Translations under genes and position numbers: made by a program
In this document: piece after piece, positions 705-4,727 of the stretch
How positions within the stretch are numbered: the first letter of the stretch is position 1
Layout: each line of letters starts with the position of its first letter
Notes under the pieces: generated by a model
Told to the model about the DNA's origin: nothing
The model's input: only the letters and a program-made list of their open reading frames with translations
Databases searched by the model: none
NCBI RefSeq assembly: GCF_003334385.1
Contig: NZ_QOWN01000070.1
Reading direction: 5' to 3' (one strand)
DNA length: 9,240 nt
From: Escherichia coli
Lineage (GTDB): Bacteria; Pseudomonadota; Gammaproteobacteria; Enterobacterales; Enterobacteriaceae

Positions 705-729
705 TAAAAAAAAGCCCGCAAAAGCGAGC
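705..729 (-). terminator. Intrinsic terminator downstream of the tRNA cluster, minus-strand orientation
   Basis: A-run 705-713 then hairpin gcccgc-aaaa-gcgagc (714-729). The single C/A mismatch on plus becomes a G-U wobble in the minus-strand RNA, followed by eight or more U. Confidence 0.6.
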
Positions 730-744
730 CAGGGAAAATAAGTG

Positions 745-821
745 TGGCGCGTTCTACTGTATTCGAACCAGTGACCGATTGCTTAGAAGGCAATTGCTCT
801 GTCCGGCTGAGCTAACAACGC
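745..821 (-). tRNA. tRNA-Arg (anticodon UCU), phage-type (argO-like position)
   Basis: Minus-strand read: GCGTTGT-TA-GCTC-AGCCGGACA-GAGC-A-ATTGC-CTTCTAA-GCAAT-CGGTC-ACTGG-TTCGAAT-ACAGT-AGAACGC-G-CCA. D and anticodon stems are perfect, the T-loop is TTCGAAT, and the 3' CCA is encoded. One mismatch each in the acceptor stem and T-stem. Confidence 0.7.
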
Positions 822-834
822 AGGATACAGATAA

Positions 835-911
835 TGAACCGCCTTCGGGGACCCGAACTCCGCGCAACCAGCTTCGAAGGCTGGCGCTCTTTCCTGATGA
901 GCTAATGGCGG
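835..911 (-). tRNA. tRNA-like gene, possibly tRNA-Arg (anticodon UCG) or a degenerate tRNA pseudogene (argN-like position)
   Basis: Minus-strand read: CCGCCAT-TA-GCTC-ATCAGGAAA-GAGC-G-CCAGC-CTTCGAA-GCTGG-TTGCG-CGGAG-TTCGGGT-CCCCG-AAGGCGG-T-TCA. D and anticodon arms are perfect, but the T-loop is non-canonical (TTCGGGT), acceptor and T stems each carry one mismatch, and the 3' end reads TCA rather than CCA. Confidence 0.4.
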
Positions 912-918
912 TATGTGA

Positions 919-994
919 TGGTGGCCCTTGCTGGATTTGAACCAGCGACCTGGCGATTATGAGTCGCTCACTCTCACCACTGAGCTAAAGGGCC
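919..994 (-). tRNA. tRNA with anticodon CAU (tRNA-Ile2 or tRNA-Met type; ileZ-like position)
   Basis: Minus-strand read: GGCCCTT-TA-GCTC-AGTGGTGA-GAGT-G-AGCGA-CTCATAA-TCGCC-AGGTC-GCTGG-TTCAAAT-CCAGC-AAGGGCC-A-CCA. Acceptor and T stems are perfect, the T-loop is canonical, CCA is encoded; 76 nt. Confidence 0.75.
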
Positions 995-1004
995 GAGCCA
1001 AAAA

Positions 1005-1033
1005 ATAATAATCAGATGAAAATCAATAATCAA
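1005..1033 (-). promoter_or_regulatory. Sigma70-like promoter for the tRNA cluster
   Basis: On the minus strand, TTGATT (plus 1028-1033), a 17-nt spacer, then TATTAT (plus 1005-1010), ending about 10 nt upstream of the tRNA 5' end at 994. Overlaps the 3' end of the AraC-like ORF. Confidence 0.35.
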
Positions 1034-1736
1034 GCCCTTGCCTGGATACATATCTGTCTGGCGGGAAGCCATAATAGCGGTGAAATACAGAAATAAAGTA
1101 GGACCTGCTTGAATAACCGCATTTTTCTGCTATAGCCTGTCCATATCCATGCCGGGAACATAACATATTTACAGCAACACGCATCCGCTCTTCCAGCAAC
1201 AAGCGACTGAACATGCCCCCTTCATTTTTCAGTTTTGTCTTTAACAAACTCTCACTCATATGCAACTGTAGAGCAATCGCACCAAGCGTCCAGCTTGCTG
1301 ATATATCTGTCTGAATTATCGCCCTGACTTTGGCACTTATGCTGGATAAACATCCACTTAAAAACAATGACATCCGTTCATCTGTTTCAAACAGAGACAG
1401 GCAGGCCATCATAAGAAACATATCCGTGGCCTCTCCGGAAAATCCCTGGCTGGTAATTAAAGCCGCAGCCAACGCAGGATTGTTGGGTTCCAGCAACAGG
1501 TAAAGCGGAATGTCAGTCAGACGAGTCCTCGTCAGCTTATGCTGACTTTCCAGATATTGACTTACGACGGATTCGCTTATATCGACAATTTTAACTTTGC
1601 CATAATGCATAAGGAAAAGCTCCCTGATGCATTTGGTGGCCAGAACAACTGAGCCTGGCTTAAGTGACAACGTATCCTTTTCAAGAAAAATATTAATTGG
1701 GGAGCAAACCATGATAACTGAACAGACAACAGCCAT
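1023..1736 (-). CDS. AraC/XylS-family transcriptional regulator, YdeO/AppY/GadX-like
   Basis: ORF track, 237 aa, ATG start. The N-terminus MAVVCSVIMVC resembles the M-x-x-VCSV start I recall for YdeO/AppY. The C-terminal region (SESLLKTKLKNEGGMFSRLLLEERMRVA ... IAEKCGYSSRSYFISVFHRYYGFPP) has the pattern of the AraC-family HTH. From memory, not searched. Confidence 0.8.
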   Translation of the reverse strand: MAVVCSVIMVCSPINIFLEKDTLSLKPGSVVLATKCIRELFLMHYGKVKIVDISESVVSQYLESQHKLTRTRLTDIPLYLLLEPNNPALAAALITSQGFSGEATDMFLMMACLSLFETDERMSLFLSGCLSSISAKVRAIIQTDISASWTLGAIALQLHMSESLLKTKLKNEGGMFSRLLLEERMRVAVNMLCSRHGYGQAIAEKCGYSSRSYFISVFHRYYGFPPDRYVSRQGLDY

Positions 1737-1857
1737 TATAATTTTACTTTCATTAGCAATTGGTTAGCTCAATTATAGCCCCAAAAGGTAAATTATCATC
1801 AACACATAAGCAAAGGACTGACAGGTGTCGCCCCCCCACCAGCCGCCCATTCACCAC

Positions 1858-1884
1858 AAATAAAAAGCCTTCAGGACTGAAGGC
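1858..1884 (-). terminator. Intrinsic terminator at the 3' end of the small winged-helix ORF, minus-strand orientation
   Basis: A-rich run 1858-1866 then hairpin gccttca-ggac-tgaaggc (1867-1884); the minus-strand RNA is a hairpin followed by UUUUUAUUUG. Overlaps the stop codon at 1871-1873. Confidence 0.55.
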
Positions 1885-2068
1885 GTCTGTAACAACCGCA
1901 CTGATAGTCTGCCAGACCCGCCATAACAAGCTGGGTCAGTATTAACTGGCAGCGTTCGCGTGAAAGGTAAGTATTCTGCGCAATCTCCCCGACTGTCGCC
2001 GGTTCGGTAACGCTTAATTCATCAAACACAACTCTGGCGGTTTCTGTCATATCCTGCTGTTTCAGCAT
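1871..2068 (-). CDS. Small winged-helix DNA-binding protein, possibly FaeA/PapI-like
   Basis: ORF track, 65 aa, ATG start with a GGAAAGGG purine-rich stretch about 9 nt upstream. The pattern ATVGEIAQNTYLSRERCQLILTQLVMAGLA resembles the recognition-helix region of PapI/FaeA-type regulators as I recall them. Low-certainty assignment. Confidence 0.5.
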   Translation of the reverse strand: MLKQQDMTETARVVFDELSVTEPATVGEIAQNTYLSRERCQLILTQLVMAGLADYQCGCYRRLQS

Positions 2069-2192
2069 GTCTTTTTACCCTTTCCGGTTAACGTGACATA
2101 CCAATAACTCTTGTCTAAAAAGCCAGCAAGATAAAAAGCCAGTATTCACGACCACCAGCGTGTTTACTGTACTGCACCAAGTTTACAGGTAC

Positions 2193-2217
2193 AAAAAACC
2201 CGCTCAGTGGCGGGTTT
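2193..2217 (-). terminator. Intrinsic terminator (minus-strand, possibly weakly bidirectional) in the divergent intergenic region
   Basis: A6 run 2193-2198, perfect 6-bp hairpin acccgc-tcagtg-gcgggt (2198-2215), then ttt. The minus-strand RNA is a hairpin followed by UUUUUUGU; on the plus strand only three U follow. Confidence 0.5.
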
Positions 2218-2281
2218 AAGTTGTGTGGCGAAGTAACCACTCTTAACACAATACAATACTTTTTGCGTACGCGTTAGTGTT

Positions 2282-2322
2282 TTGATAGAATTTTCAGCCA
2301 CATAAAAATTCATTCTTATAAT
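2282..2322 (+). promoter_or_regulatory. Putative promoter elements upstream of the AT-rich cassette
   Basis: TATAAT at 2317-2322, 12 nt upstream of the ATG at 2335, and TTGATA at 2282-2287. The 29-nt spacing is too long for a canonical -35/-10 pair, so only the -10 is credible. Confidence 0.3.
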
Positions 2323-2334
2323 TCGGGATATATA

Positions 2335-3510
2335 ATGGATATAACTTGTTTAGAATGTGGCAATGTTCTTGACGACCCAACTGTAGCTTGCGATAAATGC
2401 GGTGCCACGCCTCATGTTGTAGTGCTGGGCAAACAATCGTACTTTCCTATTGGTGCTGTAACAGCAAATCTTGAAAAAAATGATTCAAGAGCATTTGATT
2501 ATCGATTAGGTGAAGTTTGGGATCTAAAAAATGAAGTCACATCTGAATTCATAACCAGAATTGAGAAAAAATTTAGCCGAAAAAACAAATTTCATAACTT
2601 CCTAGACTCAGATCACAACCCTTCATCCATTCCTACGATCCTAAAAAAATACATTAATAAAAATAATGAATTCATTGATTTATCTAGAGCTATAATAGAG
2701 AAGCTTAAACATAATGCTAATAACGAATCGAGAGTTGCCCAACTTCAGGGGGGGAGCGTTGTTTTCATCCACTATAAGTCTACCGAACCAGAGGATTTGG
2801 GGAAACTTCTAATCGTAATGGTTGATAAACAAAGCGCCTATGACTTTGATTCGGATAAGTTGACCCCAACAAGATTAAATCCAATTAATACCGATGCCTT
2901 ACGGCAGGCTGCGATGTTCGATTTAACTTTATTCGAAGCCAGTTATCCAGAAAACAAGGGTGACTCATATGTACATTTCTTGCAAGGTAAATCTAAAAGC
3001 GATTTTTTCAAAGACTCATTAGGTTGCCGACATGATTCGGACAATAAAAGAAGCATTCAGCAATTATTCAGTGCTATAGATATTTTTGCTAGTAAAAACT
3101 CACTCGGTCGTGTACTGCGTGATACTATTGACAATGAAGTTAAATCCTTACTGGAAAAAAAATCAAAAGATAAACACGGAAATAAGTCCGTTAAGATAGA
3201 GGATATTTCAAAAATAATTGACTCATGCCTGACTGATTCACACAAATGTAAGGGAACGTTTGTCGATTTTGTTAATCTTAATGGTTTCCAGATTGACCCT
3301 CAATTTGAACCAACTCCTAAAGCAGCTGAAAGCGCGCTTACAATTGAAGTGGCAGATAACGACAATAATTTTAAGTTGAAAATAATGCGTGGAGCTATTG
3401 GAGACGAAAAGTCAAATAAGCCTGTAATTCTCACTGACAACAAATGCGAAATTGTGATAAAATTGAGTCAGGCAAATTATGATGAACTCAAAAGATATAG
3501 AGACAGCTAA
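2335..3510 (+). CDS. Cassette gene 1: N-terminal zinc-ribbon fused to an NdpA/YejK-like (NA37 family) nucleoid-associated-protein-like domain
   Basis: ORF track, 391 aa. The DNA is AT-rich (about 30% GC on a sampled 60-nt line, versus about 58% on a sampled line in the helicase gene). CxxC-x10-CxxC at C5, C8, C19, C22. The motifs GGSVVFIHY ... LLIVMVD ... AAMFDLTLF ... YVHFLQGKSKSDFFKDSLG match the order and spacing I recall for E. coli YejK (GG-V-LF-HY ... LLVAVL ... ARIDLTEW ... [22 protein letters not shown]). From memory, not verified. Confidence 0.8.
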   Translation: MDITCLECGNVLDDPTVACDKCGATPHVVVLGKQSYFPIGAVTANLEKNDSRAFDYRLGEVWDLKNEVTSEFITRIEKKFSRKNKFHNFLDSDHNPSSIPTILKKYINKNNEFIDLSRAIIEKLKHNANNESRVAQLQGGSVVFIHYKSTEPEDLGKLLIVMVDKQSAYDFDSDKLTPTRLNPINTDALRQAAMFDLTLFEASYPENKGDSYVHFLQGKSKSDFFKDSLGCRHDSDNKRSIQQLFSAIDIFASKNSLGRVLRDTIDNEVKSLLEKKSKDKHGNKSVKIEDISKIIDSCLTDSHKCKGTFVDFVNLNGFQIDPQFEPTPKAAESALTIEVADNDNNFKLKIMRGAIGDEKSNKPVILTDNKCEIVIKLSQANYDELKRYRDS

Positions 3511-3512
3511 TA

Positions 3513-4727
3513 ATGACAATTGCTGATGACTTATCAAGATTAGCGCAGATTATTAACGGAGCCTCAAGCAGAGTTGAGGGCTACTACACTGTCATAAGTC
3601 TTGAAGAAAGCATTGTTATTGTAAATAGTTCTGAAATAATTAGACTGTTACAATCTATAGGTTATAAAAAGGCAACAACCTGCATCGAAAATAATGAAAT
3701 TTGGCTAGATCGCCAAGCTTCATCTTGGGATGACGCTATAATTTATGAGAATGTTGAGTCTTTTTGGTCTAGAGTAAACACCCAAAACGCTCTTCCGAAA
3801 AATTATATCATCGGAACGCCGTTAATACTCCCTACTTCTAAGAATGAAAGCATCGAAAAAATCCATATTTTCTTTATGTGGAAAGATATCCTTTCATTAA
3901 TTGCTGATCATCATAACAGTGACTGCTCTGTCTTATTTTTCACCAATGAAGACAAAAGTTATACAGTCGAACTCACGCATTTTTTACAATATAGCGAGAT
4001 TAATCGCTTATCGAACTCGTCTCTTAAATATGAAATTATAAAGGAGCTTCTCGACACAATAAAAATCAATGATTTACACAAAAGCGAGCGCAAGCTCGTT
4101 ATACGCTCAGCCATAAACGAAGTATTTAAAGCAAATGGTACGTTCAATTTCTTTGACTTGCTTAACTCTACTGAACTCGTCAGGAAAAAATATGATGAAC
4201 TATATGAGATTTACACAAAGAGGTTTTCTGTAAATAAAATTCTTAACGAACTCGATGAGAAAAATCTTGAGTTCACGAGTAAAATTAACGAATTCATATC
4301 ATCTAATCAGACAAAAGCATTGACTATTCCCGGTGCATTAATAGCTGCTGGTGGCTTAGTGAAGGCTAATGAAACAACCGAAGCAATATTGATTATCGCA
4401 GGACTTTGGATGATAAAAAAAGTCAATTACATTTCTATTGAGATATTCAATGAAACATTCGACAACTTACGTTCTCGAGTGGAGTCCGCTTTCGATAAGT
4501 ATTTAAAGTTTGAAGAAAATAAAGAAATCAAAGATAATGCAGATAGTATTAAGAGTAGCATTACAGGTTTGATTGATAAAGCTAAAAAAAGGATGAGAAC
4601 TGTTAAATATCTCGCATCAGCCATGTTTTATGGAGGCCTTATTTACGTTGGATATAAACAGTTCCCAGTCTTTTTTGAAAAATCGGCAGTAAATCTATTT
4701 TATTTTTTATGCCATACTATAAGCTAA
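3513..4727 (+). CDS. Cassette gene 2: predicted membrane-associated protein of unknown function (candidate effector)
   Basis: ORF track, 404 aa. The ATG lies 2 nt after the gene 1 stop, indicating an operon. AT-rich. Hydrophobic segments ALTIPGALIAAGGLV and AILIIAGLWMI (about nt 4318-4420) and the C-terminal YLASAMFYGGLIYVGY (about nt 4608-4680). No catalytic motif recognised. Confidence 0.8.
   Translation: MTIADDLSRLAQIINGASSRVEGYYTVISLEESIVIVNSSEIIRLLQSIGYKKATTCIENNEIWLDRQASSWDDAIIYENVESFWSRVNTQNALPKNYIIGTPLILPTSKNESIEKIHIFFMWKDILSLIADHHNSDCSVLFFTNEDKSYTVELTHFLQYSEINRLSNSSLKYEIIKELLDTIKINDLHKSERKLVIRSAINEVFKANGTFNFFDLLNSTELVRKKYDELYEIYTKRFSVNKILNELDEKNLEFTSKINEFISSNQTKALTIPGALIAAGGLVKANETTEAILIIAGLWMIKKVNYISIEIFNETFDNLRSRVESAFDKYLKFEENKEIKDNADSIKSSITGLIDKAKKRMRTVKYLASAMFYGGLIYVGYKQFPVFFEKSAVNLFYFLCHTIS

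Follow-up and report, generated by a model that had tools for sequence, protein, structure and literature searches.

PsrA and PsrB are prophage-encoded secretion regulators of EHEC (enterohaemorrhagic Escherichia coli) O157:H7 (Tree et al. 2011 and Yang et al. 2015, reviewed in PMC10877973 and PMC8565820). The two proteins are reported to be 90% identical to each other, with psrB (z2104) located in O-island 57 (OI-57), psrA (z1789) on CP-933N/OI-50, and Pch genes in the vicinity of the psr genes (reviews PMC10877973, PMC8565820). The reviews describe PsrB as binding to the promoters of hdeA and gadE and increasing acid resistance, and both PsrA and PsrB as lowering type III secretion via GadE and YhiF (PMC10877973, PMC8565820). 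PatE (z0321, OI-8) is another prophage-encoded AraC-like activator of acid resistance, and in K-12 GadW, GadX, YdeO and AppY all regulate gadE and the AR2 system (PMC10057817). This paper describes a gene for an AraC-like protein of 237 aa, by sequence of the PsrA/PsrB type, in a 9,240-nucleotide stretch of E. coli DNA (contig NZ_QOWN01000070.1, assembly GCF_003334385.1; this whole stretch is referred to as the window), together with the small open reading frame (ORF) upstream of it and the run of seven C (C7) between the two genes.

We consider it likely that the late-leader region of this lambdoid prophage comprises two independent modules, in which a cargo of the PsrA/PsrB type lies beside a conserved unit built around the small ORF, and that the C7 run is not a switch. 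As such the finding is ordinary and already known, and offers no new insight into mechanism. An original prediction, made from the nucleotide sequence, had described at this locus a YdeO/AppY-like AraC regulator, a small winged-helix protein with its own terminator, and a C tract that might act as a slipped-strand switch; the AraC ORF, the small ORF, the hairpin with its T-run, and the C7 at 1831-1837 are all present.

Identity of the AraC-type regulator

The window belongs to a lambdoid prophage of E. coli. Its genes, most of them on the minus strand, are in the order replication genes, DUF968, Q (5078-4707), a low-G+C gene pair, the 65-aa ORF, the 237-aa ORF, and three tRNAs, which agrees with the predicted placement of the regulator as prophage cargo between Q and the tRNAs. 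The best DNA matches of the window are prophages of O104:H4-like and other human isolates; with O104:H4 among these top matches, the host appears not to be O157.

The 237-aa protein has the hallmark of AraC/XylS regulators, a domain of about 100 aa at the C terminus that contains two helix-turn-helix (HTH) motifs. The profile search returned Pfam HTH_18 at residues 155-230 (E 1.1e-9) plus two HTH_AraC matches, in line with the predicted AraC-type HTH, and the DNA-binding domain matches the solved domains of GadX (PDB, 7e-19), Rns, and ToxT. YdeO, GadW, GadX, and AppY are the closest full-length models or proteins, and share with the window protein the AraC subfamily, the N-terminal M..VCSVI motif, and the C-terminal double HTH. 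However, the NCBIfam scores are far below the cut-offs of GadX and YdeO, the best full-length model being that of YdeO (NF007407, an equivalog) at 108.5 bits against a cut-off of 348, and the identities with the K-12 proteins are low (GadW 32%; GadX 41%, C-terminal half; YdeO 29%; AppY 28.8% over 236 aa). The protein therefore falls in the acid-resistance subfamily, yet is none of its K-12 members: YdeO was ruled out on basis of bit score and identity, and the AppY of DLP12 on basis of identity and prophage position, AppY being encoded at the far end of DLP12 and the window protein in the slot between Q and the tRNAs. Thus, the subfamily foreseen in the original prediction stands, but the protein is of the PsrA/PsrB type rather than YdeO or AppY. 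PatE, which belongs to the same subfamily and has the same reported role, is more remote than the psr products; the window protein is 37% identical over its full length to ECs_0287 of strain Sakai, which on basis of its location is probably the PatE orthologue, but this distant paralogue is found at the end of Sp1 and not in the Q-tRNA slot.

Close counterparts are found in O157:H7, where the genomes contain two copies of the gene (99.2% and about 90-94% nucleotide identity); among complete E. coli genomes, 726 of 5426 carry it. The protein is identical at 234 of 237 positions (98.7%; three amino-acid changes) to the copy in O157:H7 WS4202, a derivative of EDL933. The prophage in which this copy resides is located at ydfJ, has three NleG-type effector genes at its end, and lies in tandem with a second prophage, a layout that is as expected for OI-57. 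A second allele (allele B, the window carrying allele A) is 90.7% identical and likewise present in O157:H7, and at both O157 loci a PerC/Pch-family regulator gene is located a few kb downstream. Judged from these sequence and synteny data, the gene is a PsrA/PsrB-type prophage acid-resistance regulator that has already been characterised: like PsrA and PsrB, its product is a 237-aa AraC-like protein encoded on a lambdoid prophage, nearly identical to the OI-57-like copy, of which the O157 counterparts have a Pch/PerC gene nearby. The differences are the three amino-acid changes, a host that is probably not O157, a DS-1 gene pair (described below) between Q and the module, and a tract of C7 where O157 has C8. 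In the 19.7 kb of the window's own prophage that was examined, yfdN, labelled PerC family transcriptional regulator by PGAP, is found among the early genes, and there is no effector gene. The protein itself (WP_000301785.1) is named 'helix-turn-helix domain-containing protein' by PGAP, and cluster look-ups returned no Psr or z-number names.

Two alleles may also occur side by side, as in IMG/VR contig 2695420847_000016 (L067, 2502-5466), in which both are present in tandem in a single prophage at a distance of about 1.2 kb, allele B with an interrupted tract being followed by allele A with C7.

A conserved small-ORF unit and an exchangeable cargo slot

The extent of the cargo was determined by comparison with a prophage of strain UTI89, with which homology runs from 2214 to about 1835-1826 and then resumes from 1009 onward, so that the AraC cassette spans about 1010-1826. 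The tract-adjacent Chi site on the small-ORF side of this boundary was kept in five of six related loci with other alleles or cargo, while the sixth lacked the search anchor, and in almost all of about 40 sampled genomes without the AraC gene the homology ends 4-38 nt 3' of the conserved Chi. These data suggest that Chi-stimulated recombination anchors the exchange of cargo at this slot. A stronger form of this reading is that the small HTH gene, its terminator, and Chi together constitute a fixed recombination anchor and the slot a point of Chi-driven cargo exchange: RecBCD entering from the cos/late side would stop degrading at Chi, exchange would start in the conserved small-ORF segment, lambdoid prophages residing in the same cell would trade whatever cargo is located just 3' of Chi (PsrA/B, a DNA methylase, or nothing), and the G-run on the coding strand would be a by-product of repeated repair at the junction. 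We regard this elaboration as tentative and on balance unlikely. Exact Chi octamers number eight in the 9.24 kb of the window (at 1836, 2152, 4347, 5438, 5567, 6190, 6840, and 8981), where shuffles predict 0.21. Six of them lie on the strand that has the same sense as Q and the late genes, and Chi-rich lambdoid phages with the same strand bias are described in PMC12315714 and PMC3784561. As Chi is very dense in this class of phages anyway (PMC12315714), its adjacency to the slot could be coincidence; the position of a Chi directly against the tract and the cargo-slot boundary was not found in the available portions of those two papers and sets the window apart from the phages described there. 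In the methylase-type cargo of UTI89 (L087, 3736-3760), a reverse Chi, CCACCAGC, occurs 13 nt after the conserved Chi, which places the junction between two opposed Chi sites.

The small ORF is a real gene. Its pN/pS is 0.16 over 17 alleles, and it has homologues of constant length in Escherichia, Shigella, Salmonella, Klebsiella, Citrobacter, and Buttiauxella; the phrog_331 family to which it matches is of unknown function. At the sequence level, Pfam TrmB gives a weak match (i-E 0.0031), other winged-helix families are weaker still, and a PDB sequence search with the small-ORF profile returned no meaningful match. The AlphaFold model (pLDDT 81.6) has a three-helix core, with the C-terminal wing region modelled as a helix of lower confidence, and the top Foldseek matches, including the best one, are mostly winged-helix proteins (PcaR, Z-alpha, IscR, PefI; TM 0.64-0.72 and probability up to 0.99, but E of at least 0.4). 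The model thus points to an HTH-type fold, and the predicted winged-helix label is better backed by fold than by sequence. SafA, the product of the 65-aa gene that precedes ydeO in K-12, was considered as a homologue and set apart by description, as SafA is a membrane connector and the small protein would be a soluble protein with an HTH-type fold.

In the original prediction the small ORF was taken as regulatory cargo together with the AraC gene, with the two as separate transcription units. The distribution of the small ORF does not bear out the first of these. A query consisting of the small ORF and the AraC gene (allele B copy) matched in 2271 of 5426 complete E. coli genomes, with the AraC part covered in 725; the small ORF is therefore about three times more widespread than the AraC gene, and about 1500 genomes have the former without the latter. 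It is followed by a DNA methylase gene in UTI89 and MEC2025-PR and by no cargo in EBJ003, and it is found in phiP27, SfV, mEp460, and many Stx2 phages. Since it is far commoner than the AraC gene and occurs next to other cargo, the small ORF does not form a pair with the regulator; as a widely distributed lambdoid gene, it marks a slot for varied cargo.

The second claim, that of separate units, agrees with the architecture of the 134-nt gap between both genes, in which the C7 also lies. Overlapping with the stop codon of the small ORF is a hairpin, GCCTTCA-GUCC-UGAAGGC (1884-1867), after which comes UUUUUAUUU; with -10.5 kcal/mol and a z of -2.9 against shuffles it qualifies as a rho-independent terminator, of which the stem is kept and the loop differs in other prophages. 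Because of this terminator, the separate promoter-like site in the cassette, and the wider occurrence of the small ORF without the AraC gene, the two genes look like separate transcription units. Hence the small HTH protein and its AraC neighbour are very unlikely to be partners in a regulatory pair or members of one operon, even though the small ORF immediately precedes the AraC gene in all 78 IMG/VR matches to a tract-flank pattern, the modelled fold of its product is DNA-binding-like, and the terminator in O157 has been weakened to an extent that could permit read-through. Besides the numerous genomes and phages that have the small ORF without the AraC gene, O157:H7 FRIK2455 has a frameshifted small ORF beside an intact AraC gene. 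The weakening concerns a single-nucleotide polymorphism in the stem of the small-ORF terminator of O157:H7 WS4202 (L008, 9833-9873, corresponding to window 1867-1884), which changes its energy from -10.5 to -4.4 kcal/mol; this lineage has C8 and not C7.

Upstream of the small ORF, the hairpin at 2217-2191 has an O157 equivalent with the same stem and another loop, as would suit a terminator of the late leader. Between Q and the small ORF is another variable slot, occupied in the window by the defence pair, in MEC2025-PR by DUF262/HEPN/Dcm genes, in FRIK2455 by a CPBP protease gene, and in 19AR1724 by a 205-aa hypothetical gene; in WS4202 and UTI89 it is empty. The predicted AraC promoter is identical in alleles A and B, and no convincing terminator was found between the AraC stop codon and the first tRNA. 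As the cassette lacks a terminator, transcription from the AraC promoter would enter the tRNAs and end at the hairpin at 730-713.

Taken as two modules, the region would be organised and would function as follows. The first module would consist of the small HTH gene (2068-1871), its intrinsic terminator, and Chi, and would follow Q in a large share of the E. coli lambdoid prophages. The second would be the 0.8-kb cargo cassette (about 1826-1010) with a promoter-like site and the PsrA/PsrB-type regulator, inserted between the first module and the phage tRNAs. By extension from the 99%-identical O157:H7 counterpart, the protein would bind AT-rich sites at the gadE and hdeA promoters, and this binding would turn on glutamate-dependent acid resistance and, in strains positive for the enterocyte effacement locus (LEE), indirectly lower type III secretion. 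In the lysogen, the cassette's own promoter would drive expression of the regulator, with the two terminators keeping out transcription from upstream, and after induction Q-modified polymerase would read through into the regulator gene and the tRNAs.

It is a most improbable alternative that the AraC protein acts chiefly on the phage, for example on the tRNAs, late genes, or stx, and not on host regulons. The location of the gene in the late leader, just upstream of the tRNAs and with no terminator between, would suit such a role, as would its presence upstream of stx2k in phiSTEC1575-Stx2k, a sequenced Stx2k-converting phage with the order Q, small ORF, AraC gene (91.6% identical), tRNAs, and stx2kAB (L090, 4143-6824). 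However, the O157 homologues are reported to bind directly to the host hdeA and gadE promoters and to affect acid survival and secretion (PMC10877973, PMC8565820), and the cassette is dispensable, being swapped for unrelated cargo in related prophages. The expectation in the original prediction that the regulator could rewire host regulons is consistent, by analogy, with the reported action of the O157:H7 counterparts on the GAD regulon and type III secretion (review PMC10877973). In phiSTEC1575-Stx2k, an IraM-like gene is located after the toxin genes.

Several points weigh against the two-module explanation and its functional part. The AraC promoter is a consensus match and thus a prediction, and a scan of the minus strand over 2219-4707 for the late promoter of this Q protein gave no convincing candidate; as this promoter was not located, Q read-through on induction is an assumption. 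The effects on the regulon of the window's host are extrapolated, because this host appears not to be O157. Moreover, the link to psrB and the z-numbers comes from OI-57 synteny and the reviews and not from published sequence. An AraC gene is absent from CP-933N/Sp6 of both Sakai and resequenced EDL933 (in Sakai Sp6 by tblastn at E=10), the tRNAs directly follow Q in Sakai Sp10 and Sp14, and the 90% paralogue sits in a prophage adjoining yccA in O157:H7 FRIK2455. Either the 2001 assembly or the island assignment of psrA appears to differ, and the published positions of psrA and psrB are not fully in agreement with the resequenced O157 genomes. The family assignment of the AraC protein is firm; which of the O157 copies is PsrA and which PsrB is provisional, because of the missing gene in CP-933N/Sp6 and the position of the paralogue at yccA.

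Length variation of the C tract

On the coding strand the sequence at the tract reads GCTGGTGGGGGGGCG, of which the first eight bases are a perfect Chi (1843-1836) and the G-run continues from its last two G. The paralogue, methylase-type prophages, and the Stx2k phage have GCTGGTGGGTGTTAG at the same site, with GTGTTAG in place of the run, which makes the homopolymer a derived feature of one allele lineage. The tract is located on the conserved small-ORF side of the cassette boundary, outside the AraC cassette; it precedes the predicted -35 by 32 nt and occupies about -66 to -72 relative to the predicted start site. Relative to this predicted promoter it is not in the -35/-10 spacer, no plausible promoter hexamers flank it, and it is not in a reading frame. 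A frameshift reading was rejected, as no real ORF crosses the tract, the small ORF ending before it and the AraC ORF beginning after it. Runs of at least seven C or G are not exceptional, with about 0.5 expected per 9.2 kb at 46.6% G+C (own arithmetic), and the window has a second one, G7 at 2748-2754.

The length of the tract does vary. The 78 IMG/VR matches include uninterrupted alleles from C6 to C9, and the 54 loci with full flanks comprise 7 with C6, 33 with C7, 11 with C8, and 3 with C9. Loci with identical 1020-nt flanks were C7 in 21 cases and C8 in one, and those with O157-type flanks C8 in five cases and C9 in one. By parsimony, these 54 loci have undergone at least 11 independent length changes, a rate about 35-fold that of substitutions per site. 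Among 60 complete genomes, sampled with a spread from 660, C7 dominated outside O157 and C8 in O157, with single cases of C6, C7, and C9. Each lineage has one dominant tract length, and part of the variation may be homopolymer sequencing error.

Homopolymeric tracts that control promoters by phase variation, such as those of porA and opc in Neisseria and of the fim genes in Bordetella, are usually longer and are found either within the -35/-10 spacer or in the interval from an activator site to the -10. The window tract resembles these in that a G/C run lies upstream of a gene and differs in length between isolates; unlike them, it is upstream of the predicted -35 and has one dominant length per lineage. 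Moreover, for a switch in E. coli with proficient mismatch repair, a run of seven to eight bases is short. A slipped-strand phase switch, in which gain or loss of a single base would alter psr transcription and create subpopulations differing in acid resistance, might be argued from the occurrence of C6 to C9 among near-identical sequences, from the elevated rate of length change, and from complete O157:H7 genomes that are mostly C8 and occasionally C7 or C9, but it is hardly probable at all for a tract that is in neither a spacer nor a coding frame, lies on the side common to prophages without the AraC gene, is replaced by GTGTTAG in the paralogue and beside other cargo types and hence is not a conserved element, keeps to one length per lineage as typical contingency loci do not, and varies in part perhaps through sequencing error. 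Of the predicted switch, the length variation holds and the switch interpretation is probably wrong. The C7 run is most likely an ordinary mutable homopolymer, which would have arisen next to Chi in one allele lineage and would change length faster than ordinary sites mutate.

Neighbouring features and biological meaning

The coordinates of the features discussed are collected in Table 1.

Table 1. Features of the regulator locus and its surroundings, with positions in the window
Feature	Position	Strand	Evidence
AraC/XylS regulator gene, psr-type (PsrB-like), 237 aa	1023..1736	-	Pfam, GadX structure match, 234/237 identity, phrog_1450 1.5e-98
AraC cargo cassette, approximate extent (predicted promoter and gene, without own terminator)	1010..1826	-	homology breaks against UTI89 prophage
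Predicted sigma-70 promoter of AraC gene (ATGATA, 16 nt, TATAAT)	1772..1799	-	10/12 consensus positions
C7 run (G7 on coding strand), length-polymorphic	1831..1837	.	exact run
Chi octamer GCTGGTGG, overlapping first two G of tract	1836..1843	-	exact match
Intrinsic terminator after small ORF (7-bp stem, 4-nt loop, U-run)	1860..1884	-	-10.5 kcal/mol, z -2.9
Small 65-aa HTH protein gene, phrog_331, PGAP name 'TrmB family'	1871..2068	-	phrog_331 6e-37, pN/pS 0.16, AlphaFold
Second Chi octamer, upstream of small ORF	2152..2159	-	exact match; conserved in O157
Strong intrinsic terminator upstream of small ORF, possible tR'-type late-leader terminator	2191..2217	-	-13.8 kcal/mol, z -3.2
tRNA-Ile2(CAT) 919-994, tRNA-Arg(TCG) 836-912, tRNA-Arg(TCT) 745-821; directly downstream of AraC gene	745..994	-	ARAGORN, Rfam, RefSeq annotation
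Terminator after tRNA cluster	713..730	-	-11.4 kcal/mol, z -2.9

The pair between Q and the small ORF is a low-G+C (35%) two-gene anti-phage system on the plus strand (2335-3510 and 3513-4727). Its first gene encodes a YejK-like nucleoid-associated protein with an N-terminal zinc ribbon and its second a 404-aa protein with hydrophobic C-terminal segments, and both score above the NCBIfam cut-offs (DS1_1, 451 vs 330 bits; DS1_2, 375 vs 315 bits). We take DS-1 to be the YejK-domain system of DefensePredictor (PMC13092281); the two genes also resemble type II PANGU (bioRxiv 10.64898/2026.04.06.716658). PADLOC gave no match for any of the four window proteins tested, and PADLOC 2023 has no model for the DS-1 pair. 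The G7 run at 2748-2754 falls within the coding region of the first defence gene, where a one-base slip would truncate the protein. Q (minus strand; a protein of 123 aa) and the second defence gene (plus strand) share 21 nt at their 3' ends (4707-4727). For this Q, neither a late promoter nor a Q-utilisation site was located, and late transcription may need to cross the 2.4-kb pair in the antisense direction.

For the tRNA at 919-994, ARAGORN reports tRNA-Met(CAT) and RefSeq tRNA-Ile (ileZ type). Just downstream of the tRNA cluster, matches to the Rfam small RNA family STnc100 are present on the minus strand, of which those at 464-669 and 1-186 are strong (141 and 134 bits, gathering score 47) and that at 252-425 is weak.

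The comparison defines an exchangeable slot, between the unit of small ORF, terminator, and Chi and the phage tRNAs, which in the Stx2k phage is positioned just upstream of stx2. WP_000301785.1 may be read as a PsrB-type regulator. In pathogenic E. coli, Psr regulators on prophages tie the carriage of a phage to survival in acid and to the control of secretion, and the recognition of such a regulator in another lysogen is therefore useful for annotation and for the assessment of strain risk.

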